Assembly: GCA_036270315.1 (NCBI GenBank)
Contig: DATBCS010000148.1
Location: 1 to 33,150 of the forward strand
Source: Gemmatimonadales bacterium
GTDB taxonomy: Bacteria > Gemmatimonadota > Gemmatimonadetes > Gemmatimonadales > GWC2-71-9
Length of the DNA: 33,150 nt
Direction: 5' to 3'
The notes beneath the pieces are model-generated. The model did no database searches and was not told the DNA's origin. It saw only the letters and a program-made list of their open reading frames with translations. Both the position numbers and the translations under genes were made by a program. This document shows, one piece after another, positions 3,441 through 13,196 of this stretch (positions are counted from its first letter, which is position 1; each line of letters starts with the position of its first letter).

Positions 3441-4272
3441 GGTCCAGCTCGCGCGCGATGCGCTCGGGGACGCGCGGGTCAGCGAGCGCCGCCGTGCCGA
3501 TCGCGACGAGCGACGCGCCGGCCGCGAGGTACGCGCGTGCGTCGGCCGCGGTGCGGATCCCGCCCACGCCGATCACAGGAATGCGCACGTGCTCGGTCAC
3601 CCGGAGCGTCGCGAGCACGCCGATCGGCAGCAGCGCGGGTCCGCTCACGCCACCCGACCCGTTCCCCAGGCGGTGCGCCAGCGTCCCCGGGATGGTGTTC
3701 ACGAGCGTGACGGCGTCGGCGCCGGCGTCCGCGGCCACCGCGGCCATGGCGGCCACCTCGGGCAGGACGGGGGATAGTTTGACCGCCAGCGGTTTCGTGG
3801 TCGCGCTGCGGCAGCGGCGTACCAGCTCGCGCAGGCCTTCGGCCGTCGCCCCGAACTCGAGCCCGCCGGCGCTCGTGTTGGGGCAGGAGGCATTGAGCTC
3901 AAACGCGGTCACGACCGCGAGGGAGGTAAGCGTCCGGACGACCTCGACGTAGTCGTCCACGGTAGCGCCCGCCACGTTGACGAGCACGCGGGCGCGCGTC
4001 AGGTGTGTGGCGAGCCACGGCAGCTCGTGGGTGCGCACGCGCTCGAGGCCGGGGTTTGCGAGGCCGACCGCATTGAGCATGCCCCCGACGAACTCCGCCA
4101 CGCGCGGCGCCGGCGCGCCCGGGCGGGGCTCCGGAGTCACGGCCTTGGTGACGAGGCCCCCCAGGCGGTCGAGGGGGATGACGCCGTCCACCTCGCGGCC
4201 GAAGCCGGCGGTGCCAGAAGCGAGGAGAACGGGATTCTGAAACGCGACGCCGAACAGCTGGACCGCGCTCAC
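3433..4272 (-). CDS. pyrD: Dihydroorotate dehydrogenase, class 1 (Cys catalytic base)
   Basis: The conserved part starts at VSAVQLFGVAFQNPVLLASGTAGFG, followed by ELNASCPNT and GVGGI. GTG 4272 overlaps the upstream TGA (GTGA). The 389 Arg/Pro-rich residues upstream in the 668-aa track ORF are a GC artefact. Confidence 0.85.
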   Translation of the reverse strand: MSAVQLFGVAFQNPVLLASGTAGFGREVDGVIPLDRLGGLVTKAVTPEPRPGAPAPRVAEFVGGMLNAVGLANPGLERVRTHELPWLATHLTRARVLVNVAGATVDDYVEVVRTLTSLAVVTAFELNASCPNTSAGGLEFGATAEGLRELVRRCRSATTKPLAVKLSPVLPEVAAMAAVAADAGADAVTLVNTIPGTLAHRLGNGSGGVSGPALLPIGVLATLRVTEHVRIPVIGVGGIRTAADARAYLAAGASLVAIGTAALADPRVPERIARELDRG

Positions 4273-5783
4273 AAGGTATCCCGCGGCACGGCGGGGCGCT
4301 CGTCCTGATCGCCCACGGGTCGGGCGCCGCGGCGTCCCGGCGGCTCGGGACGCTCCGGGCGCGCTGGTGGGGGCGGGGCCGCGACGCCCGCCGCGACGAC
4401 GGGGCCGTCGAGCGGCGGGCCGCGGGGCCCTGGCACGGGGAGCGCGACGCGGCCGACGAACCGGGAGCTCGCCCGGCCGGCGGCGAGGCCCAGCGCGGTG
4501 GCGAGCGAGTCCTCTGCCGCGGCGAACCCGGGGCTCTGCTCGCCCCGCAGCGCCAAGGTGTAGGGCGAGGTGGCGTAGCGCGCGTCGAGCACGGCGACGA
4601 GGGAATCGTGCCGCTCGGGCTCGAGCGCGGCGGCGGCGACGAGCGCCTTGGGGGCGAACAACGAGGCCGGCTCCTGGCGCGCGAGCTCGAGAAACAGGCG
4701 GCCCGCGAGCCGCGCCGCCCCGAGTGAGTCGCGCACCGCCTCGGCGAGCTGGAACCGCTCGCCCGTCGAGCGGTCCTGCTGGTGCGCGATGCGGCGGATC
4801 AGCGCGATGAGCGCCTGGCCTTCGCTTTGGGCGACGCCCCCGCCGCCCTGGAGCAGGCGCTCGAGCGCGGCCGACGGTGCGGCGAGTTGGGGCACGCTCT
4901 CCGCCGCGACGCAGAGCACGCGCAGCGCCCGCACCCGCGCCACCTGGCCCTCGCTCGAGTCGGGCACGAGGGCGACGACGGCCGCATAGCGCGCCGCGGC
5001 GGCGGCGGTCCGCCCGCCAGCGAGCAGCGCATCCCCATCCGCGGACCACAGGCGCGCCCGCACGCCGCGCGGCGTCTGGCGGTGCGCCAGCATGCGGTCG
5101 AGCGCGCGGCTGGTGGCCTCGAGCCCGGCGGCGCGGCGCAGGTCGATCAGCATCGCCGCCCACGCCGTCTCCTCGACGGGACCGTGCGCCAGCGTGTCGG
5201 TCCATTCGAGGGCGTCGGCCACGCGGCCCGCCGCGACGAGCGCCCGGACGCGGGCGGCGAGCGCGCCGGGCGCGGCCGAGCGACGGAACCACTCGGCGGC
5301 GGCCTCCTCGTCCCCCTCGAGCGCCGCGACGCGGCCGGCGTCGAACGCGGCGCGGGAGCGTCGGGCAGCGTCGCTCGATTCCGTCACGCCGGCAAGCGCG
5401 CGGCCCGCCGTCGCAGGATCGTTGGCGTCGAGGGCGCACTCCGCGCGCGCTAGCCGCGCACGCTCAAGCAAGGCCGGGTCCCGCACGGTCGCGATGGCGC
5501 GCGCGAGCGGTGCCGCCGCCGGCGCGCACGCGCCGCTGCGGGCCAACGCCTCGCCGTGGAGCACCAGGGCAGCGTCGGCCCAGCGGCTCGTGGGGTGGCG
5601 CACCAGGACCGACTCGGCCTTCACCGCGGCCTGGGCCCAGTAGGTGCGCGCCTCGCCGGCGCGGTCCTGGCGCTCGAGCTTCCGCGCCTCACCGGCCAGG
5701 TGTTCGGCGCTCCACATCCCGTTGTAATAACCGCAGCCGGCGACGCACGCGCCGGCCAGCACGAGGGCGGTGGCGCGGGTCAT
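4269..5783 (-). CDS. Lipoprotein with TPR-like helical repeats and a Pro-rich C-terminal tail
   Basis: N-terminus MTRATALVLAGACVAGCGYY is a lipobox-type signal (L-A-G-C / A-G-C). Ala/Leu/Arg-rich helical repeats follow. ATGA overlap with the amidase stop. Confidence 0.6.
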   Translation of the reverse strand: MTRATALVLAGACVAGCGYYNGMWSAEHLAGEARKLERQDRAGEARTYWAQAAVKAESVLVRHPTSRWADAALVLHGEALARSGACAPAAAPLARAIATVRDPALLERARLARAECALDANDPATAGRALAGVTESSDAARRSRAAFDAGRVAALEGDEEAAAEWFRRSAAPGALAARVRALVAAGRVADALEWTDTLAHGPVEETAWAAMLIDLRRAAGLEATSRALDRMLAHRQTPRGVRARLWSADGDALLAGGRTAAAAARYAAVVALVPDSSEGQVARVRALRVLCVAAESVPQLAAPSAALERLLQGGGGVAQSEGQALIALIRRIAHQQDRSTGERFQLAEAVRDSLGAARLAGRLFLELARQEPASLFAPKALVAAAALEPERHDSLVAVLDARYATSPYTLALRGEQSPGFAAAEDSLATALGLAAGRASSRFVGRVALPVPGPRGPPLDGPVVAAGVAAPPPPARPERPEPPGRRGARPVGDQDERPAVPRDTL

Positions 5784-7051
5784 CGCCCCCCCGCGCGCGT
5801 GCCGACCGCGACCTTGTGCTCGAACTCCTGGAGGTACTGCACGATGCCGTCAGCGATGGCGGACGCGAGCTTGTGCTCGCCGAGGCCCGACGCCAGGAAC
5901 GCGGCGTCGGTGCGGTTCGTGGCGAAGCCCGTTTCGACGAGGATCGCCGGCCGCCGCGCGGTGGTGAGCACGGTGAAGCCCGCCTGCTGCACGCCGTGGT
6001 CCCCGCCGGGGTGCACTGCCGCCACGTGCCCCTGGACCAGTTGGGCGAGCGCGGCGGACTCGCGCAGATACTCGTTGAGCTGGAGGTCCTTGAGGATGAA
6101 GTTGACCGGCCCCTTCACCCCCGTCGCCGGCGCTGCCTCGAACCGGATCGCGTCGTTTTCCATGGTGGCGACGCGCTGCTGATCCTCGTTCTTCGCCTCC
6201 GACAGGAAGTAGGTCTCGACGCCGCCGGTGCGTTCCGCGCGCCGGCCGGCGGGCATGGCGTTCACGTGGATGCTCACGAACAGGTCGCAGTCCACCCGGC
6301 ACAGCGCGCCGCGGTCGGCCAGGTCGATCAGCGTGTCGCGGGTGCGGGTGAGCGAGGCCCCGATGGCGCGGCGGCTCAGCTCCGCGCGCAACAGCCGCGC
6401 GATGGCGAGCGTGATGTCCTTCTCGACCAGTCCACTCGGGAAGTAGAGGCCCGGGTTGCCGGGGTCGGCGCCGCCGTGCCCCGGGTCGATCACCACGGCA
6501 TGGGGGAAGCGGAGCCCGGTGAGCGGGTTCGGCGCGCGGTCCCGGGGAACGGCGACGACGGGTGTGAGGGGCGTGGCCGGCGGTGCGACGGCCGGGATCA
6601 GGGCGGCCGGCCCGGGCCGTTCGAGCCCGGGCGTTGGCGGCGCGGCCACGCGATCCGCGACCGGCAGCTCTTCCAGACGGCGCGCGGCGGCGTCCCAGCG
6701 GTAGCGCGGCCCGAGCGCGCGGGGCACGCAGTCCGTGAGCCACACGAGCGGCAGGAAGACGGTGTCGCGCGCGGTGTAGGGCTCGCCCACGAGGCCGTAC
6801 ACCGTCCCTTCGTGGCGCACGTAGGGAGCGCCCAGTTGGAACACGAACAGCGTGCCCCGGAGGTTGACGAGCACGCGCGATCCGTCGACGATGATCGTGA
6901 GGCGGAGCGGCTCCGTGAGCAGCGGGGCCGCGAGCGCTGCGCTGCCGCGCTCCATTGTCACCGGCACGCTCGTCGCGCCGCGGGGCGTCGTGATCATCAC
7001 CGTCTCCGGCGGCGTCGTCGCGACGAGCAGCCACACCAGCGCACGGGTCAT
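5780..7051 (-). CDS. N-acetylmuramoyl-L-alanine amidase (Amidase_3 family) with N-terminal AMIN-like domain
   Basis: VVIDPGHGGADPG, EKDITLAIARLL, SIHVNA and ETYFLS are Amidase_3 zinc-site and core motifs. ATGA overlap with the smpB stop. Confidence 0.85.
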   Translation of the reverse strand: MTRALVWLLVATTPPETVMITTPRGATSVPVTMERGSAALAAPLLTEPLRLTIIVDGSRVLVNLRGTLFVFQLGAPYVRHEGTVYGLVGEPYTARDTVFLPLVWLTDCVPRALGPRYRWDAAARRLEELPVADRVAAPPTPGLERPGPAALIPAVAPPATPLTPVVAVPRDRAPNPLTGLRFPHAVVIDPGHGGADPGNPGLYFPSGLVEKDITLAIARLLRAELSRRAIGASLTRTRDTLIDLADRGALCRVDCDLFVSIHVNAMPAGRRAERTGGVETYFLSEAKNEDQQRVATMENDAIRFEAAPATGVKGPVNFILKDLQLNEYLRESAALAQLVQGHVAAVHPGGDHGVQQAGFTVLTTARRPAILVETGFATNRTDAAFLASGLGEHKLASAIADGIVQYLQEFEHKVAVGTRAGGR

Positions 7052-7503
7052 GCGCGCTTGCCCCGGACGCCGCGCGCCAGCTCGCGCTCGGCTACGCGCT
7101 GCTTGAGCGCTTCCCGTTTGTCGTGCAGTTTTTTCGCCTTGGCGAGCGCGATCGCCACTTTGGCGATGCCGTCCTTGAAGTACAGTTCCAGCGGCACGAT
7201 GGTGAGGCCTTTGCGGCTGGTGCCGCCGATGAGTTTGCGGATCTCGTGCGCGTGCAGGAGCAGCTTACGCGAGCGCGCCGGGGGGGGATTGTTGTAGCTG
7301 CCGGGAAGGTACGCCGAAATACTCAAGCCTTCGAGCCACACTTCGCCGCGTTTCACGTGAGCGTACGCCTCGCCGAGACTCGCCTTGCCGGTGCGCAGCG
7401 ACTTCACTTCGGTGCCCGTGAGCACCAGCCCCGCCTCCCACGTCTCCAGGAGATGGTAGTCATGACGCGCCCGCGGGTTGCGCGCGATGGTGACCTTGTC
7501 CAC
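7048..7503 (-). CDS. smpB: SsrA-binding protein SmpB
   Basis: KVTIARNPRARHDYHLLETWEAGLVLTGTEVKSLR...RKLLLHAHEIRKL...ELYFKDGIAKVAIALAKAKKLHDKR aligns along the whole of SmpB. Start placed at GTG 7503 (TTG 7515 is possible). The longer track ORF runs antisense across the tRNA gene. Confidence 0.85.
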   Translation of the reverse strand: MDKVTIARNPRARHDYHLLETWEAGLVLTGTEVKSLRTGKASLGEAYAHVKRGEVWLEGLSISAYLPGSYNNPPPARSRKLLLHAHEIRKLIGGTSRKGLTIVPLELYFKDGIAKVAIALAKAKKLHDKREALKQRVAERELARGVRGKRA

Positions 7504-7513
7504 CGGGTGAGGC

Positions 7514-7542
7514 AAGATAGAAACCGGGTGCGAAGCGGTCAA
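7514..7542 (-). promoter_or_regulatory. Candidate sigma70-type promoter for smpB (TTGACC-17 nt-TATCTT)
   Basis: On the minus strand TTGACC is at 7542..7537, followed by a 17-nt spacer and TATCTT at 7519..7514. The -10 ends 10 nt before GTG 7503 and there is no SD. Confidence 0.4.
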
Positions 7543-7550
7543 GCCAAGAG

Positions 7551-7580
7551 TTGACTTGAGGTTATACCGCCGTCTATATT
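7551..7580 (+). promoter_or_regulatory. Candidate sigma70-type promoter for tRNA-Leu (TTGACT-18 nt-TATATT)
   Basis: TTGACT at 7551..7556 and TATATT at 7575..7580. The mature tRNA 5' end lies 14 nt downstream. AT-rich hexamers stand out in a 70% GC background. Confidence 0.45.
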
Positions 7581-7594
7581 CGCCGTTCCAACGG

Positions 7595-7679
<85 letters not shown>

Positions 7680-7713
7680 CGGCGCCGAGCGCTCGCGCGC
7701 ACCGGCACACAAG

Positions 7714-7736
7714 AGGCGGCGAGGTGATCGCCGCCT
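7714..7736. terminator. Perfect 9-bp hairpin between the convergent tRNA-Leu and cysO-moeZ genes (candidate bidirectional terminator)
   Basis: AGGCGGCGA-GGTGA-TCGCCGCCT, followed on the plus strand by TGGTGTTCT. Confidence 0.45.
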
Positions 7737-7767
7737 TGGTGTTCTCCCGCGCTGCCGTCGCCGCGCC

Positions 7768-9195
7768 TCAGTAGCGGGGCATGTCCGGATCCACGTTCAC
7801 CGCCCACGCATCGATCCCGCCGCGCAGACTGCGCGCCTTCGCAAATCCCGCCGCCCGCAGGATCTCGAGCGCCCTGAGCGAGCGGGCGCCGTGGTGGCAG
7901 TACGTGACGACTTCGGCGTGATCGTCGAGCTCCCGCAGGCGGGCGGGTAATTCGCCCAATGGAATGAACGTCCCCCCCGGGATGTGCGTGATCTCGTACT
8001 CGTGGGGCTCGCGCACGTCGAGCAGCACGACCGGCCGGCCCTGGTCGAGCTCGCCCTTCAGCTCGAGCGCGCCGACTTCGGCGCCCGCATAGGTCGGCTC
8101 CGCGCCGATCCCGCAGAACGCTTCGTAGTCGATCAGGGCTGTGACGCTCGGATGCGCGCCGCACACCGGACAGGCGGGGTCCTTCTCGAGCGCGAGCTCG
8201 CGGAACTGGAACTTGAGCGCGTCGAACAAGAGCAGCCGTCCCACGAGCGGCTCCCCGGCGCCTACGATCAGCTTGATCGTCTCGAGCGCCTGGATCGAGC
8301 CGATGATCCCGGGCAAGACGCCCAGCACCCCGCCTTCGGCGCATGACGGCACCAGGCCCGGGGGCGGCGGCTCGGCATAGAGACAGCGATAGCAGGGGCC
8401 CCGCCGCGCGTCGAACACGGAGGCCTGGCCCTCGAACCGGAAAATCGAGCCGTACACGTTCGGCTTGCCGAGCAGCACGCAGGCGTCATTCACGAGGTAG
8501 CGGGTGGGGAAGTTATCCGTCCCGTCCGCCACGATGTCGAAGTCGCGGATGATGTCGAGGCCGTTCTCGGAGGTGAGCCGGGTTTCGAACAGCTCGACGT
8601 GGACGTTGGGGTTCAGGTCCTCGAGGCGCGCTCGGGCGGACTCGAGCTTGGGGGTGCCCACCGCCGCCGTGCCGTGGAGGATTTGGCGCTGGAGGTTCGT
8701 CTTGTCGACCACGTCGAAGTCCACGAGCCCGAGCGTGCCCACGCCCGCCGCAGCCAGGTACAGGGCCGCGGGCGAGCCGAGGCCGCCCGCGCCGACGACG
8801 AGTACGCGCGCCGCCTTGAGTTTCCTTTGCCCTTCGACGCCCACATCGGGCAGAATCAGGTGACGCGAGTAGCGGAGGATCTCCTCGTGCGACAACGGGG
8901 GCAGGCCGGTCGTCACGGCCGTCCCGCCCGCGATGCTCGGGATGATCGACACGGTGTCCCCGGGCGCGACGGTGGTCCGCTCGTGCGCCAGCCGGCGGAT
9001 GTCGCGATCGTTCACGTAGACGTTGACGAAGCTGCGCAAGCGCCCATCCGCGGCGAAGAGATGCGGCTTCAGCGCGGCGTGCTCGCCCGTCAGGCGCGCG
9101 AGCAACTCCGCCACGCTCGTGCCCTCGAGCTCGAGCGTGTCACGCCCGCCGACATACGCCCGGAGCGGGCTCGGGATCAAGACCTTCACTGCCAT
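7768..9195 (-). CDS. Fusion protein: CysO-like ubiquitin-fold sulfur carrier (aa 1-91, ending AGG) + MoeZ/MoeB-type E1 adenylyltransferase + C-terminal rhodanese domain
   Basis: The N-terminus, FVNVYVNDRDIRRL...GDTVSIIPSIAGG, resembles M. tuberculosis CysO (FVNIYVNDEDVRF...GDSVTILPAVAGG). Then LSHEEILRYSRHLILPDVGVEGQRKLKAARVLVVGAGGLGSPAALYLAAAGVG (E1 nucleotide loop) and PSCAEGGVLG. The rhodanese active site is YCHHGARS. The end, DPDMPRY, resembles MoeZ. Confidence 0.85.
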   Translation of the reverse strand: MAVKVLIPSPLRAYVGGRDTLELEGTSVAELLARLTGEHAALKPHLFAADGRLRSFVNVYVNDRDIRRLAHERTTVAPGDTVSIIPSIAGGTAVTTGLPPLSHEEILRYSRHLILPDVGVEGQRKLKAARVLVVGAGGLGSPAALYLAAAGVGTLGLVDFDVVDKTNLQRQILHGTAAVGTPKLESARARLEDLNPNVHVELFETRLTSENGLDIIRDFDIVADGTDNFPTRYLVNDACVLLGKPNVYGSIFRFEGQASVFDARRGPCYRCLYAEPPPPGLVPSCAEGGVLGVLPGIIGSIQALETIKLIVGAGEPLVGRLLLFDALKFQFRELALEKDPACPVCGAHPSVTALIDYEAFCGIGAEPTYAGAEVGALELKGELDQGRPVVLLDVREPHEYEITHIPGGTFIPLGELPARLRELDDHAEVVTYCHHGARSLRALEILRAAGFAKARSLRGGIDAWAVNVDPDMPRY

Positions 9196-9638
9196 ACGGC
9201 GTTCCCTTCCTCAATCACCAACGGTTCCACGTCGAACGCCCCGCGGTCGTCCGCCAGCACCCAGCTCGCGAGCTCTCCCGAGCGTCCGCGGGCGACGCCC
9301 ACGATCACGTAGGACAGCCACGGCCAGGCGTGCGCCCGGTCGAACGCGGACGGCGTCGGCGGGTGATCGGGGTGCGAGTGGTACACGCCGAGCACCTCGA
9401 GGCCGTCGCGGTCGAGCTTCTCCTGGGCGCGCCGGAACGCGTCGGGGTCGATCAAGTAGCGGTTGCGGGCCGCGTCGGTGCGCTGGTTCGCGAGGGGCAC
9501 GAGGTGCACGGCCACCTTGCGGCCTCCCTCGCCCTCGTCGATCATGCCGCCGATCAAGCCGCAGGCCTCGGCGGGGTAGTCCGCCTCGCCGTGACGCCGG
9601 ATGGCCGCCACGTGACGCGGGTCGAGCTGCAGGGTCAT
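9186..9638 (-). CDS. mec: JAMM/MPN+ metalloprotease (Mec+-like CysO-cysteine peptidase)
   Basis: EACGLIGG and the YHSHPDHPPTPSAFD JAMM motif (H-x-H-x7-S-x2-D). ATG 9638 overlaps the cysM TGA (ATGA). The stop overlaps the fusion gene start by 10 nt. Confidence 0.85.
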   Translation of the reverse strand: MTLQLDPRHVAAIRRHGEADYPAEACGLIGGMIDEGEGGRKVAVHLVPLANQRTDAARNRYLIDPDAFRRAQEKLDRDGLEVLGVYHSHPDHPPTPSAFDRAHAWPWLSYVIVGVARGRSGELASWVLADDRGAFDVEPLVIEEGNAVWQ

Positions 9639-10666
9639 GACGTCTCCCCCTCCCCCGCCCCCGCCCCCGCCCCCGCGCCGTCGCCTGCGAGGCGGCGCCA
9701 CTCGCTCAAATAGCGGCCCCCGGAGTCTGGGGCGACGACCACGATCACGAGCGGACCGCGCCCCGGCCGGCGCGCGGCGGCGCGGATCCGCTGCGCCGCC
9801 ACGAGCGCCGCCCCCGTGGACCAGCCGAGCAACAGGCCGCGGTGCGCGAGACGCCGGACCGCGGCTTCCGCCGCTTCCGTGGCAACGAACTCGGTCCGGT
9901 CCACGAGGCCGGGATCGTAGATCGGCGGTACGTGGGCGGTCGCGAGGTGTTTCAACCCCTCCAGCCCGTGGAATGGGCCGTCCGGCTGCACGCCGACGAG
10001 TTCGATCCGCGGGTTCAACTCCTTCAAGCGACGGCCCGTGCCGATCAGGGTCCCGGTCGTGCCGAGCCCCGCGACGAAGTGCGTGATCCGACCCTCGGTC
10101 TGGCGCCAGATCTCTTCCGCCGTCGTCGCGTAGTGGGCCCGCGGGTTCGCGGGATGGCTGTACTGATCGGCGTACCAGTACCGCTCAGGCTCCTGGGCCG
10201 CAAGCTCGCGCGCGGCGCGAATCGCGCCGTCCGAGCCCTCGAGCGCGTCGGTGAGGCGTACCTCGGCGCCGTACAGCTCGAGCAACGTCTTCCGCTCGAC
10301 GCTGGCGTTGGCCGGGACGCACACCGTGACGCCGATCCCCGCCGCCGCGCCGAGCATCGCGTAGGCGATCGCCGTGTTGCCGCTCGACGCGTCGAGCAGT
10401 CGTTTACCGGGCAGCGCCCCGCGGGCGATCCCGTCGCGCAGAATGAAGAGCGCCGGCCGGTCCTTCACCGAGCCGCCGGGATTGAGCCACTCGGCCTTGA
10501 GCCACAGCGCCGCCCTCCCGACCTCCTCCTCCGCGGCGGGGAGGGCGAGGAGCGGGGTGTTCCCGACGAGCCCCCACAGGGCCGGCTCGCGGGCGTTCCG
10601 CGGCTCGCTCCCCCGCGTCCGCGGCCGTGCGGGGCGCGGGCTGCGTTTCAGCGTTGCCGCCTTCAC
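9635..10666 (-). CDS. cysM: PLP-dependent cysteine synthase, CysM-like
   Basis: GNTPLL...KAEWLNPGGSVKDRPA (PLP lysine motif), SSGNTAIA and GLGTTGTLIG. GTG 10666 overlaps the rhodanese TGA (GTGA). C-terminal (Gly-Ala)n tail. Confidence 0.85.
   Translation of the reverse strand: MKAATLKRSPRPARPRTRGSEPRNAREPALWGLVGNTPLLALPAAEEEVGRAALWLKAEWLNPGGSVKDRPALFILRDGIARGALPGKRLLDASSGNTAIAYAMLGAAAGIGVTVCVPANASVERKTLLELYGAEVRLTDALEGSDGAIRAARELAAQEPERYWYADQYSHPANPRAHYATTAEEIWRQTEGRITHFVAGLGTTGTLIGTGRRLKELNPRIELVGVQPDGPFHGLEGLKHLATAHVPPIYDPGLVDRTEFVATEAAEAAVRRLAHRGLLLGWSTGAALVAAQRIRAAARRPGRGPLVIVVVAPDSGGRYLSEWRRLAGDGAGAGAGAGEGETS
9646..9674 (-). repeat. Five G5 tracts separated by single nucleotides (sense strand): G-quadruplex-type motif / hexanucleotide repeat
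   Basis: The plus strand reads CCCCC-T-CCCCC-G-CCCCC-G-CCCCC-G-CCCCC. On the mRNA strand this is GGGGGCGGGGGCGGGGGCGGGGGAGGGGG. It encodes the GAGAGAGAGEG tail of CysM and ends 7 nt before the mec ATG. Confidence 0.7.
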
Positions 10667-11514
10667 TCCGCTCCTTTCGCGATGGGCGCCGCGACCAGGT
10701 TGCCCCACTCGGTCCAGGAGCCGTCGTAGTTCTTCACCTGCTTCACGCCCACCAGATACTTGAGCGCGAACCACGTATGACTGGACCGCTCGCCGATGCG
10801 ACAGTACGCGATCACGGCTTTCTTGCCATCGATCACCTTCGCGGTCTGGTAGAGCTTCACGAGCTCCTCGTACGGCTTGAACGTTCCGTCGGAGGCGACG
10901 GCTTGGGCCCAGGGGACGCTCCGCGCTCCGGGGATGTGGCCGCCGCGTTGCGCGGTCTCGGTCATGCCGGGCGGCGCGATCACGTCGCCCAAGTACTCCG
11001 GGGTGGAGCGGACATCGACCAGCGCGACCTTCGCCGACCCGCGCGCCCGCTCGACGTCCAGCCGCTTGGCGCGGATCGCCGCGTTCACCTTCTTCGGCGC
11101 CGGGTAGCGCGTGGGGCGCACGCTCGGCCGCTGGGTGACGAGGGGTCGGCCTTCGGCCACCCACTTGGCCCGCCCCCCGTTCATTAGTTGCGCGGCGGTG
11201 TGGCCGTACAGCTGCAGCAGCCAGAACGCGAATGCCGCGAACCAGTTGTTGTTGTCCCCGTATAGCACGACGGTCGTCTGGGGCGTCACGCCCGCACCGG
11301 ACAGGAGCGCGGCGAACGCCTGCTTGTCGGGGATGTCGCGGCGCACCGGGTCGTTGAGTTGCGACTGCCAGTTCCAGCCCACCGCCCCGGCGACGTGCCC
11401 GCCGTCATACGCCGTGGTGTCCACGTCGACTTCGATCAGCCGGATGTTGGGATCGTTGAGATGCGCCGCCACCCATTCGGTGGAGACGAGCACCTCGGGA
11501 TGTGCGTAGGCCAC
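10663..11514 (-). CDS. Thiosulfate sulfurtransferase (tandem rhodanese, CysA/SseA-like)
   Basis: Collinear with mycobacterial CysA2. Shared segments include VLVSTEWV, NNNWFAAFAFW, GHIPGA and the active site YCRIGERSSHTWF...NYDGSWTEWG. Start moved to GTG 11514 because GGAGG lies 5 nt upstream. The track ORF starts at TTG 11526. Confidence 0.85.
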   Translation of the reverse strand: MAYAHPEVLVSTEWVAAHLNDPNIRLIEVDVDTTAYDGGHVAGAVGWNWQSQLNDPVRRDIPDKQAFAALLSGAGVTPQTTVVLYGDNNNWFAAFAFWLLQLYGHTAAQLMNGGRAKWVAEGRPLVTQRPSVRPTRYPAPKKVNAAIRAKRLDVERARGSAKVALVDVRSTPEYLGDVIAPPGMTETAQRGGHIPGARSVPWAQAVASDGTFKPYEELVKLYQTAKVIDGKKAVIAYCRIGERSSHTWFALKYLVGVKQVKNYDGSWTEWGNLVAAPIAKGAE

Positions 11515-11532
11515 CGTTACCTCCAATCGGGG

Positions 11533-11559
11533 GAAACCCGACAGAGGGAGTCGGGTTTC
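11533..11559 (-). other. Perfect 10-bp stem-loop in the rrf2-rhodanese intergenic region, function unknown
   Basis: GAAACCCGAC-AGAGGGA-GTCGGGTTTC. On the transcribed strand a T8 run (11566..11573) precedes the hairpin rather than following it. AATCGGG direct repeats flank the element. Confidence 0.35.
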
Positions 11560-11589
11560 AGTTCAAAAAAAACAATCGGGATGGCGGGA

Positions 11590-12042
11590 TTAGTTCCCGG
11601 CCAGGACCCCGGCGATCTGGTACACTTCCGGCTCGTCGTGTGTCAGGTCGGCGAGCGAGATGCTGGCCAGCAGGTCGTTGATCCGCTGTTCCAGCATTCG
11701 CCAGACCGGCCGGATGCTGCACGACGCGTCCGGACTACATCGCTGGGGGTCGACCGGGTGGAGATCGCAGTTGACTTCGAAGGTGACGTGTTCCGAGGCT
11801 GCGACCACGTCCTTCACGGAGATGGCCTCTGGGGAGCGGGCGAGGTGATAGCCGCCCTTGGCGCCGCGCACTGAATCCACCAACCCGGCGCGCCGCAGCC
11901 GCAACAGGATCTGCTCGACGTAGTCGTGGGGCAGGTGTTCCTGCTCGGCCAGCTCGCGCGCCGCGACCGGCCCCTGCCCCGCGCGCTTCGCGAGGTTCAA
12001 GGAAACGATCAGTCCGTATTCGGCCCAGGTGGTGACGCGCAT
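11590..12042 (-). CDS. Rrf2-family transcriptional regulator (IscR/CymR-like) with three clustered Cys
   Basis: MRVTTWAEYGLIVSLNLAK...ARELAEQEHLPHDYVEQILLRLRRAGLVDSVRGAKGGYHLAR is the Rrf2 winged-helix domain. NCDLHPVDPQRCSPDASC provides a C-x10-C-x5-C cluster. Confidence 0.85.
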   Translation of the reverse strand: MRVTTWAEYGLIVSLNLAKRAGQGPVAARELAEQEHLPHDYVEQILLRLRRAGLVDSVRGAKGGYHLARSPEAISVKDVVAASEHVTFEVNCDLHPVDPQRCSPDASCSIRPVWRMLEQRINDLLASISLADLTHDEPEVYQIAGVLAGN

Positions 12043-12050
12043 ATGAAAGC

Positions 12051-12079
12051 AATATGGGAGACTGGTTACCGGGATTCAA
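12051..12079 (-). promoter_or_regulatory. Candidate promoter for rrf2 (TTGAAT-17 nt-CATATT), -10 ends 8 nt before ATG
   Basis: On the minus strand TTGAAT is at 12079..12074, followed by a 17-nt spacer and CATATT at 12056..12051. ATG is at 12042. There is no SD. Confidence 0.4.
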
Positions 12080-12158
12080 TGGCCCGCGGGCCCAGGGCGC
12101 GGCGGGGCCGTCACTTAGGGGTCGCGCGGACGGGCGGGCGCCGGGCCGCGCGGGGTCC

Positions 12159-13196
12159 CTAGCGCCGAGGCGGTGGGCTTCCCACGGCCGGTGAGAGGCT
12201 CACGCCGAGCTGCACACCGAACACGTTTTCTCCGCCCGAGCGTTGCAGCCAGAGCAACCGCGCGTTCAGGTTCCACAGCAGCAGCCCGCTCGCGAGGTCA
12301 GCGCCGATCCCGCCCTGGAGGCCCTGGAGGATGCCGCGGTCGGGGCCCTGCGTGTAGACGCCTGCGAGCAAGAGGCCCGCCTCGCCGTACAGCCGTCCCC
12401 AGGCCGACCGCGCCGACGCCTCGTAGCCCGGGGCGAAGAGGATCGCGTTCGGCTGGCATCCGGACGAGCAACTGCCGGTGACTTGGAGCGGGGCGAAGTC
12501 GATCTGCAGGCCGACGGTGCCCCCCTTCTTGGTATCGCGGCGGAACCGCACGCCCACGAACGGGGCGCGGGCCCGGAGCGAGCCCGACACGGGGATGAGG
12601 GCGCTGACGGCGGGGCCGAGCGTGCCGGCCAGGAACTCGCCCTTGCGCGGCGGGCCGAACGCCACCGCGGCTTGGGCCCGGGCCTCGAGCCCCTGGATCT
12701 GGCTACCCGGGACTTCGAGGAAGCGCCCCTCGACGCTCGCGACCGCCTGGTTCCCCAGGGTCAGGCGGAGCCCGAGCCCGAAGGCGATCGCGAACTGGCT
12801 CGAGGTCGACACGGTATCGCTACACAGCAACAGACAGGCGGCGGCGGATTCCGTGACCCGGGCAAGCCCGAGCGTGGTGAGGGCGAAGGGCGCGAGGCCG
12901 CGGGTGCCGACGGGATAGTAGTACGAGTCGAGTCCGACGAGGGTGAGGCGCCGCACCTTGCCGTCGGTCGATAGGTCGTTGAACCGCTCCACCGAAAGGC
13001 CGGTCTCGCCGTCGTCCCCGGTGATCAAGGCCACCGAGGCGCCGAACGAGGTGAAGCTGTGGCTCTTCCCCGAGAGGTCTTCGAGCGTCAGGGAGGACAC
13101 GGTCGGGCCAATCCGGACGCGACCTTGGGCGGGGAGCGCGGAGGCCGTCGCGAGCGAGAGCGCGAGCGCCGCACCGAACCACGGAGTCTTGGGCAT
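12159..13196 (-). CDS. Secreted hypothetical protein, probable outer-membrane beta-barrel
   Basis: Signal peptide MPKTPWFGAALALSLATASALPAQG. Alternating hydrophobic/Gly-rich beta-strand-like segments run throughout. No recognised family motif. Confidence 0.55.
   Translation of the reverse strand: MPKTPWFGAALALSLATASALPAQGRVRIGPTVSSLTLEDLSGKSHSFTSFGASVALITGDDGETGLSVERFNDLSTDGKVRRLTLVGLDSYYYPVGTRGLAPFALTTLGLARVTESAAACLLLCSDTVSTSSQFAIAFGLGLRLTLGNQAVASVEGRFLEVPGSQIQGLEARAQAAVAFGPPRKGEFLAGTLGPAVSALIPVSGSLRARAPFVGVRFRRDTKKGGTVGLQIDFAPLQVTGSCSSGCQPNAILFAPGYEASARSAWGRLYGEAGLLLAGVYTQGPDRGILQGLQGGIGADLASGLLLWNLNARLLWLQRSGGENVFGVQLGVSLSPAVGSPPPRR

Follow-up and report, generated by a model that had tools for sequence, protein, structure and literature searches.

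We describe here a 33,150-nucleotide stretch of DNA from a Gemmatimonadales bacterium (assembly GCA_036270315.1, contig DATBCS010000148.1, positions 1 to 33,150; the whole stretch is hereafter called the window), in which a CysO-type sulfur carrier with a ubiquitin-like fold is encoded in a single open reading frame (ORF) with its own activating enzyme, a MoeZ-type E1 carrying a C-terminal rhodanese domain (Table 1). Judging from the sequence of this gene, of its operon, and of its relatives, the JAMM metalloprotease encoded next to the fusion probably frees both CysO and MoeZ by cutting after Gly91, for thiocarboxylate-dependent cysteine synthesis with the CysM-like enzyme of the same operon.

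The three parts of the fusion protein were all recognized by Pfam, with ThiS at residues 5–91 (E 2.8e-13; PF02597, 50.6 bits against a cut-off of 22.5), ThiF at residues 109–344 (E 6.9e-85; PF00899, 284 bits), and Rhodanese at residues 378–465 (E 9.6e-20; PF00581, 71 bits). Residues 1–91 aligned end-to-end, through the terminal Gly-Gly (GG), with two solved actinobacterial CysO chains, the CysO-type carrier of Amycolatopsis orientalis (4n6e_B, E 8e-17) and Mycobacterium tuberculosis CysO (3dwg_C, E 3e-14), and the last residues of both chains are exactly GG. The fusion N-terminus also displayed weak NCBIfam matches to SAMP1 and archaeal MoaD models. Overall, the N-terminal domain is a genuine member of the CysO/ThiS family. 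The E1 part contains the nucleotide-binding glycines (GAGGLG at residue 135) and both zinc-binding CxxC pairs (CYRC at 268, CPVC at 342), and its Cys285 was invariant in an alignment of 34 fusions. The top NCBIfam models for residues 101–475 were MoeB and MoeZ adenylyltransferase/sulfurtransferases, with scores below the equivalog cut-off for NF005902 (MoeZ, 509 vs 647) and NF005646 (MoeB, 522 vs 633) and above the cut-off for NF006444 (MoeB, 476.8 vs 449). An AlphaFold2 model of the fusion, with the 34 fusions as input, had a mean predicted local distance difference test (pLDDT) score of 84, and a Foldseek search with this model returned Uba4 (6yub_A, E 4e-36) and MoeB/ThiF structures at a template modelling score of ~0.96 on the target (0.96 for MoeB 1jw9_B). 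By domain and motif content, this part is a complete MoeZ/MoeB-type E1 with a rhodanese domain. An earlier note on this DNA had likened residues 1–91 to mycobacterial CysO, located the GG codons, and described the chain as reading through into a full MoeZ-type E1 with rhodanese; the alignments bear out the first of these statements, direct reading of the sequence shows the codon positions to be exact, and all three domains indeed lie in one ORF without a stop.

In the translated product, GG is not a free C-terminus. The codon after Gly91 is acg (Thr92) rather than a stop, the chain enters TAVTTGLPPLSHEEILRYSRHL and extends for another 384 residues, and a free GG terminus is thus possible only via proteolysis. 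Adenylation in the MoeB–MoaD, ThiF–ThiS, and CysO systems requires the C-terminal glycine of the carrier to have a free carboxylate, and because GG is internal here, the carrier must be cut out of the fusion. GG was invariant both in the alignment of 34 fusions and across 78 fused and split loci (see below), and the extended motif xIxP[SA][IV]AGG was invariant in all fused homologs examined. The segment between GG and the RYSRH motif measured 12–45 amino acids (aa) in fused homologs (median 19) and displayed no sequence conservation, while residues 89–95, i.e., GG and the start of the linker, had pLDDT values <50 in the AlphaFold2 model and are thus predicted to be disordered. An invariant GG ahead of a variable, predicted-disordered segment is the pattern expected of a cleavage site with a spacer behind it. 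No second carrier was apparent nearby: when all ORFs of ≥55 aa in the window were searched with phmmer for ThiS/MoaD/CysO-like proteins, using M. tuberculosis CysO and approximate, possibly imperfect sequences of E. coli MoaD and ThiS as queries, the fusion ORF was the only match, in agreement with the earlier observation that the operon has no stand-alone cysO.

The fusion is also found well beyond this contig. Across the junction region (8773..9037), a Logan contig from an independent soil-metagenome run displayed 0 differences and no indels. The best 120 protein clusters (80–87% identity; the named ones from Gemmatimonadetes) were all single three-domain proteins of 469–559 aa, mostly 475–485, as were all of a further best 120 clusters gathered around a fusion from Solibacteraceae (Bryobacterales). 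With the 61 species-level genomes described below, each carrying a single ORF, this rules out a frameshift or missed stop between two genes as a sequencing or assembly artefact. The earlier note had named this as what would undo the fusion, and neither the independent contig nor the homologs showed such a stop or frameshift; with nothing in its favour, an artefactual origin can safely be set aside. Of the best 150 clusters in an exhaustive search of proteins represented at 50% identity, ~10 were distinct full-length fusions and the others were ordinary MoeZ/MoeB proteins of 370–400 aa. We then scanned one genome per GTDB species and obtained at least 595 related loci, the best 80 of which were analyzed with an ORF/BLASTP script. 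CysO and MoeZ were encoded in one ORF at 61 loci and by adjacent separate cysO and moeZ genes at 17, while two had moeZ alone; since the search ranking favours fused forms, 61:17 is not an estimate of frequency. The survey proposed earlier thus recovers both arrangements. Fused loci came from Gemmatimonadota, many orders of Acidobacteriota, Eisenbacteria, Chloroflexia, Armatimonadota, and a few other groups. Closed genomes with the fusion include CP070722.1, OY970342.1, OY762429.1, and OZ255823.1.

Some fused loci carried unexpected taxonomic labels. Three metagenome-assembled genomes (MAGs) labelled as archaea (L020, L033, and L067; Methanobacteriota, Thermoplasmata, and Methanomassiliicoccales) contained the fused gene in a bacterial-type cysM-JAB neighbourhood, and these three loci grouped together in the tree described below. 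Fused genes in the same kind of neighbourhood were also detected in MAGs labelled Cyanobacteriota, Bifidobacteriaceae, Chitinophagaceae, and Clostridia (L014, L030, L060, L068). All of these cases reflect either horizontal transfer or soil contigs that were binned wrongly, and the binning of the archaea-, cyanobacteria-, and Firmicutes-labelled MAGs is not to be trusted. Among the best 120 matches to the Solibacteraceae fusion, none came from a cultured organism, all being metagenome or MAG proteins.

The gene directly upstream of the fusion encodes the candidate protease. As the earlier note had pointed out, the JAMM gene adjoins the fusion: it overlaps the fusion start by 10 nt (ATGGCAGTGA), and its catalytic motif, E...HxHx7Sx2D, is intact (EACG at residue 24 and HSHPDHPPTPSAFD at residue 87). 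The protein also matched the structure 2kcq_A (E 3.8e-26). The JAMM start in turn overlaps the cysM stop (ATGA), and the probable cysM start, a GTG at 10666 preceded by an AAGGAG box, overlaps the stop of the upstream rhodanese gene (GTGA). The four genes from sulfurtransferase to fusion therefore overlap at every junction, which indicates a single translationally coupled operon. The best family matches of the CysM-like protein were CysM/CysK, with CysM/CysK structures matched at E-values of 1e-51 to 2e-57.

Related loci connect the fused domain to the carrier of this pathway. Fused and split forms share both the cysM-JAB-cysO-moeZ gene order and their place within it, and in a neighbour-joining tree of the MoeZ part, built from the biased sample and without support values, the two are interleaved, with at least 7 changes of state. 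This interchange within one gene order indicates that the fused domain is the operon's carrier, and not a decoration of the E1. In 60 of the 61 fused loci, the end of the JAB gene was ≤300 nt upstream of the carrier; cysM was adjacent in 53 and not in the remaining 8. The two Gemmatimonadota loci with moeZ and no cysO also lacked JAB and cysM within 10 kb; in one of them (L009), the unfused moeZ sits between an Rrf2 gene and smpB, i.e., the same flanks as in the window. Based on these patterns, the JAB gene appears to go together with the carrier and not with the E1. Judging by the moeZ-alone loci, the rhodanese-cysM-JAB-cysO block seems to be a module that comes and goes as a whole, and MoeZ must have other clients. 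The Rrf2 gene beside this module is retained in Gemmatimonadales and in many Acidobacteriota loci.

The stand-alone carriers related to the fused domain are not made with a free GG end either. Of the 120 closest CysO-domain homologs, none ended at GG: 95 had tails of 1–25 aa after it (most commonly 3 and 6), about 20 were fragments of fusions, and the longest tails may themselves come from truncated fusions. Tails of 1–29 residues were likewise found in 17/17 split loci. Because every examined member has residues after GG, C-terminal trimming would be needed throughout this carrier subfamily, unlike in actinobacterial CysO, and the fusion can be viewed as an extreme form, with the longest possible "tail", of a carrier subfamily apparently made as precursors. 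Two look-ups starting from stand-alone carriers, on Eremiobacterota and Acidobacteriota contigs, returned the same cysM-JAB-cysO(+tail)-moeZ order, with moeZ in a different frame from cysO (offsets of 323 and 287 nt). A pattern in which split cysO and moeZ always share a frame (17/17), suggestive of fission by nonsense mutation, was rejected as ranking bias: two genes in one frame produce a single long tblastn match and so rank higher, and the two look-ups just described, which are free of this bias, did not show the pattern.

Two further features of the split loci were recorded. Several tails after GG were rich in cysteine (GGCCPCGCCCCPR, ...VGCCPPACGR, GGSSLRCICS, GGCVNRAG, and GGTNCTGI; from L052 at ~5560..5580, L061 at ~10300..10348, L026, L042, and L075, and from proteins P0160, P0164, and P0179). 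Where cysO and moeZ are split on Eremiobacterota and Acidobacteriota contigs (L081–L087, ~5564..5886), a gene for a small zf-CDGSH iron-sulfur protein directly follows moeZ, and is itself followed by GGDEF and PilZ genes; this may be a conserved extension of the module.

We propose that the product of the fusion gene is a precursor polyprotein. The JAMM/MPN+ metalloprotease would recognize the CysO beta-grasp domain and hydrolyze the Gly91–Thr92 bond in the predicted-disordered linker, releasing, at a 1:1 ratio, MoeZ (41129 Da) and a CysO whose Gly-Gly carboxylate is free (9761 Da, or 9630 Da once Met1 is removed). The cleaved form would be recognizable by the semi-tryptic peptide TTVAPGDTVSIIPSIAGG and the N-terminal peptide TAVTTGLPPLSHEEILR, and the uncleaved form by the junction-spanning tryptic peptide TTVAPGDTVSIIPSIAGGTAVTTGLPPLSHEEILR. 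By homology, the subsequent steps would follow those of the M. tuberculosis Mec/CysO/CysM/MoeZ pathway. MoeZ would adenylate Gly91 of CysO, and a persulfide on rhodanese Cys433, probably loaded by the operon's tandem-rhodanese sulfurtransferase, would turn the adenylate into CysO-thiocarboxylate. The CysM-like enzyme, which depends on pyridoxal phosphate (PLP), would add this thiocarboxylate to an activated serine (O-phosphoserine or O-acetylserine), and after an acyl shift, the same JAMM protease would hydrolyze CysO-Cys to yield cysteine and recycled CysO. The role of the JAMM protein in maturation, as suggested by the earlier note, is supported by the combination of invariant GG, variable linker, fused/split interchange, tails, and JAB–CysO association, from which cleavage is inferred.

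Several points weigh against this proposal. Cleavage itself, the JAMM protein as the protease acting, and the identity of the CysM substrate all come from comparison rather than from direct observation, and the tree and the locus counts behind that comparison carry the sampling bias noted above. A separate free carrier or another protease is possible in the genome outside the 33 kb window. For the last step, the CysM-like protein falls below the NCBIfam equivalog cut-off (TIGR01138, 299.5 vs 394.2 bits) and is slightly closer to the sulfide-using E. coli CysM (2e-57) than to the CysO-dependent M. tuberculosis CysM (1.5e-51); such profile and PDB scores do not separate CysM subtypes, whether by O-phosphoserine vs O-acetylserine or by carrier vs sulfide, and its presumed dependence on a thiocarboxylate is based on gene context. 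These scores, along with the 8 fused loci without an adjacent cysM, also leave some room for a thiocarboxylate destined for a product other than cysteine (homocysteine or methionine, a thio-cofactor, or tRNA thiolation), which would be compatible with cleavage, and MoeZ-type E1s are known to serve several carriers (PMC3227635). We nevertheless regard a different product as unlikely, since the PLP enzyme has CysM/CysK as its best family matches and is encoded next to most fusions, the best solved relatives of the carrier are CysO-type, and a CymR/IscR-like Rrf2 regulator heads the cluster.

Two other explanations concern the cut. The established role of Mec is hydrolysis of the CysO-cysteine adduct, and the JAMM protein might be restricted to that reaction, with the bond after GG cleaved by another cellular protease or by autocatalysis. 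The protease processing MoaX in M. tuberculosis was reported as unidentified (PMC4326299), which leaves room for such an enzyme. However, the JAB gene sits directly upstream in nearly all fused loci and vanishes together with cysO, no further protease gene is conserved in the cluster, and JAMM proteases elsewhere do cut linear fusions, namely MoaD–MoaE in Deinococcus and SAMP fusions in archaea (PMC8832034); this explanation thus seems improbable, although slightly less so than that of a different product. Alternatively, the beta-grasp domain might never be released and instead form a permanent structural or regulatory part of the E1, with a separate carrier encoded elsewhere serving CysM. There is precedent in N-terminal Ubl-like (ubiquitin-like) domains on ThiF proteins, which co-occur with stand-alone ThiS and for which a different role was suggested (PMC1779556), and our carrier search was confined to the 33 kb window. 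Yet the domain is a bona fide CysO homolog, neither the operon nor the window contains a stand-alone carrier, a separate cysO gene holds the same position in related genomes, and a permanent domain has no need for an invariant GG ahead of a hypervariable, predicted-disordered spacer, which makes permanent retention the least probable of these three. Taken together, the evidence is most consistent with release of CysO and MoeZ by the adjacent JAMM protease.

A broader form of this proposal is more speculative. In soil bacteria including Gemmatimonadota, many Acidobacteriota, Eremiobacterota, Armatimonadota, and others, all carriers of the subfamily might be made as pro-forms, with either a tail or an E1 fusion, so that a single JAMM protease would license carrier and E1 in a zymogen-like 1:1 co-activation and later recycle the carrier. 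We consider this generalization doubtful, if conceivable. Were it to hold, thiocarboxylate-dependent cysteine synthesis in this large group would depend on precursor processing in the style of ubiquitin, the protease would be a control point of sulfur assimilation, and the uncleaved Ubl-E1 may keep the E1 inactive towards other carriers (MoaD and ThiS) before the cut is made.

Table 1 Features of the fusion gene and its surroundings in the window, and the two related loci with moeZ alone.
Feature	Position	Strand	Basis or remark
CysO-MoeZ fusion (carrier, linker, MoeZ-type E1, rhodanese)	7768..9195	(-)	One uninterrupted ORF, 475 aa, 50.9 kDa
CysO-type ThiS/MoaD beta-grasp domain, residues 1–91, ending ...SIIPSIAGG	8923..9195	(-)	Pfam ThiS; alignments with 4n6e_B and 3dwg_C
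Gly90-Gly91 codons; predicted JAMM cleavage site after G91	8923..8928	(-)	G90 ggc 8928..8926, G91 ggg 8925..8923
Linker, residues 92–100 (TAVTTGLPP)	8896..8922	(-)	Length and sequence vary among homologs
ThiF/MoeB-type adenylation (E1) domain, residues 109–344	8164..8871	(-)	Pfam, motifs, fold matches
C-terminal rhodanese domain, residues 378–465; active-site loop CHHGAR (Cys433)	7801..8064	(-)	Pfam, motif
JAMM/MPN+ metalloprotease (Mec-like, Prok-JAB), 150 aa	9186..9638	(-)	PF14464, 95.3 bits vs cut-off 25
CysM-like PLP-dependent cysteine synthase, 343 aa	9635..10666	(-)	PF00291, 228 bits
Tandem-rhodanese sulfurtransferase (SseA/3-mercaptopyruvate or thiosulfate sulfurtransferase-like)	10663..11526	(-)	Profile matches
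Rrf2-family regulator (CymR/IscR-like), head of cluster	11590..12042	(-)	Profile matches
tRNA-Leu(CAG), 84 nt	7595..7678	(+)	Between fusion gene end and smpB
moeZ alone, locus L009	10001..11155		Gemmatimonadota
moeZ alone, locus L058	9980..11173		Gemmatimonadota

Within the operon, the tandem-rhodanese protein is the likely sulfur supplier. A 171-aa, GTG-started version of the JAB ORF in the mechanical ORF list is probably too long, because a GC-rich repeat upstream of the ATG reads as poly-Gly in the JAB frame; the same repeat gives the CysM-like protein a low-complexity C-terminal tail (9635..9700, minus strand; ...AGDGAGAGAGAGEGETS). Rfam found only a tRNA in the window, and thus no riboswitch or other RNA element for the operon, and no terminator-like sites were found in 6900..12400. 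The tRNA-Leu(CAG) and smpB, downstream of the fusion, are outside the operon. The mechanical smpB ORF (7048..7710) runs over the tRNA, so that the real start must be further downstream, at ~7500, and the Pfam SmpB match starts at residue 75 of this ORF; promoter-like sites in both directions occur at 7514..7580. Past smpB (4269..7051, minus strand), a 423-aa ORF, the C-terminal half of which resembles an N-acetylmuramoyl-L-alanine amidase by eye, is found with a 504-aa alanine-rich ORF.

Overall, this gene layout is genuine and widespread among soil bacteria, and the principle behind it was already predicted, and shown for MoaD–MoaE. The arrangement is neat and readily testable, and will not greatly surprise a specialist. 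What makes it noteworthy, as far as comparison of sequences indicates, is that the partner of the carrier is its own E1, that the fusion is common in abundant soil phyla, and that the whole carrier subfamily seems to be made as pro-forms. If the JAMM protease does mature the fusion, this would be a compact bacterial counterpart of ubiquitin precursor processing, with Ubl, E1, and deubiquitinase-type protease in one operon, and a simple system for studying how JAMM proteases recognize a Ubl and cut linear fusions. The fusion also bears on carrier-to-E1 stoichiometry and on how easily genes may fuse and split once a processing protease is present. In the survey, both the fusion and the tailed pro-carriers were common in soil phyla that are abundant but little studied, and cysteine synthesis there may thus rely on a proteolytic step that the M. 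tuberculosis model lacks. Databases name this three-domain protein inconsistently (P0484, 478 aa; P0068; P0391), the names including "molybdenum cofactor biosynthesis protein MoeB", "ubiquitin-like small modifier protein 1" (for the 478-aa protein), and [quoted passage not shown]. None of these names marks the fused carrier as a separate functional unit, and with the carrier thus obscured in current annotations, reconstructions of the pathway will mistakenly count cysO as absent.

The closest known pathway is that of M. tuberculosis, in which Mec (Rv1334), CysO (Rv1335), CysM (Rv1336), and MoeZ (Rv3206c) represent the same four protein families with the same expected chemistry. There, moeZ is unlinked to the other pathway genes, and CysO is a separate protein ending exactly at GG, whereas here the order is cysM-JAB-cysO::moeZ with the carrier fused to the E1. 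Because of this fusion, and because relatives have tails after GG, a maturation cut would be needed before the first turnover, unlike in M. tuberculosis. Trimming of this kind is known from QbsE/QbsD (thioquinolobactin) and HcyS/HcyD (Wolinella methionine synthesis), in which residues after the carrier GG are removed by a JAMM protease of the same cluster; the QbsE and HcyS tails are 1–2 residues long, compared to 1–29 aa in the split relatives here, and these systems have other end products and no E1 fusion.

The earlier note had implied a more unusual arrangement than this is: the arrangement is widespread in soil phyla, and release of fused ThiS/MoaD by JAB proteases was predicted in 2006 by Iyer, Burroughs and Aravind (PMC1779556), who also described operons with ThiS/MoaD, JAB, E1 plus rhodanese, and cysteine synthase, one of them in an acidobacterium. 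We found no paper in the full-text literature on a CysO–MoeZ fusion or on universal tails in this CysO subfamily, although Burroughs, Iyer and Aravind 2009 (Proteins), outside that search, may show the architecture. Linear carrier fusions cleaved after GG are best documented for MoaD–MoaE. M. tuberculosis MoaX requires cleavage after Gly82 for activity (PMC4326299), and in Deinococcus the JAMM protease DR0402 cuts the MoaD–MoaE fusion DR2607, exposing the C-terminal Gly (PMC8832034). As in these proteins, a single ORF here encodes a ThiS/MoaD-family carrier followed by a partner enzyme, with GG inside the chain, so that the features of such a precursor (carrier GG, pathway enzyme following in frame, JAMM gene present) are all found. 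The partner differs, MoaE being the downstream sulfur acceptor in molybdopterin synthesis and the partner here being the upstream activating E1 of a cysteine pathway, and the JAMM gene, not described as an immediate neighbour of MoaX or DR2607, adjoins the fusion here.

Fusions of a beta-grasp domain to the N-terminus of an E1-like adenylating enzyme have been described as well, including the Ubl-ThiF proteins of Campylobacter (PMC1779556) and a Ubl-E1-TBP architecture in Thaumarchaeota, "shared with bacteria" (Makarova and Koonin 2010, PMC2948915). The Ubl of the Campylobacter type is described as different from ThiS, is found alongside a stand-alone ThiS, and was suggested to serve another function (PMC1779556). 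Such an identity does not fit here: the fused domain is a CysO/ThiS member, a genuine CysO with GG, and is encoded with a C-terminal rhodanese in a cysM-JAB operon with no other carrier in the window. Finally, eukaryotic and archaeal ubiquitin precursors (polyubiquitin, ubiquitin–ribosomal protein fusions, and Caldiarchaeum pro-ubiquitin) are likewise linear Ubl fusions in which a deubiquitinase-type protease, Rpn11 in the case of Caldiarchaeum, exposes GG before E1 activation (PMC6043591). In those systems the modifier is conjugated to proteins, whereas the Ubl described here is expected to carry sulfur, and its fusion partner is the E1 itself.

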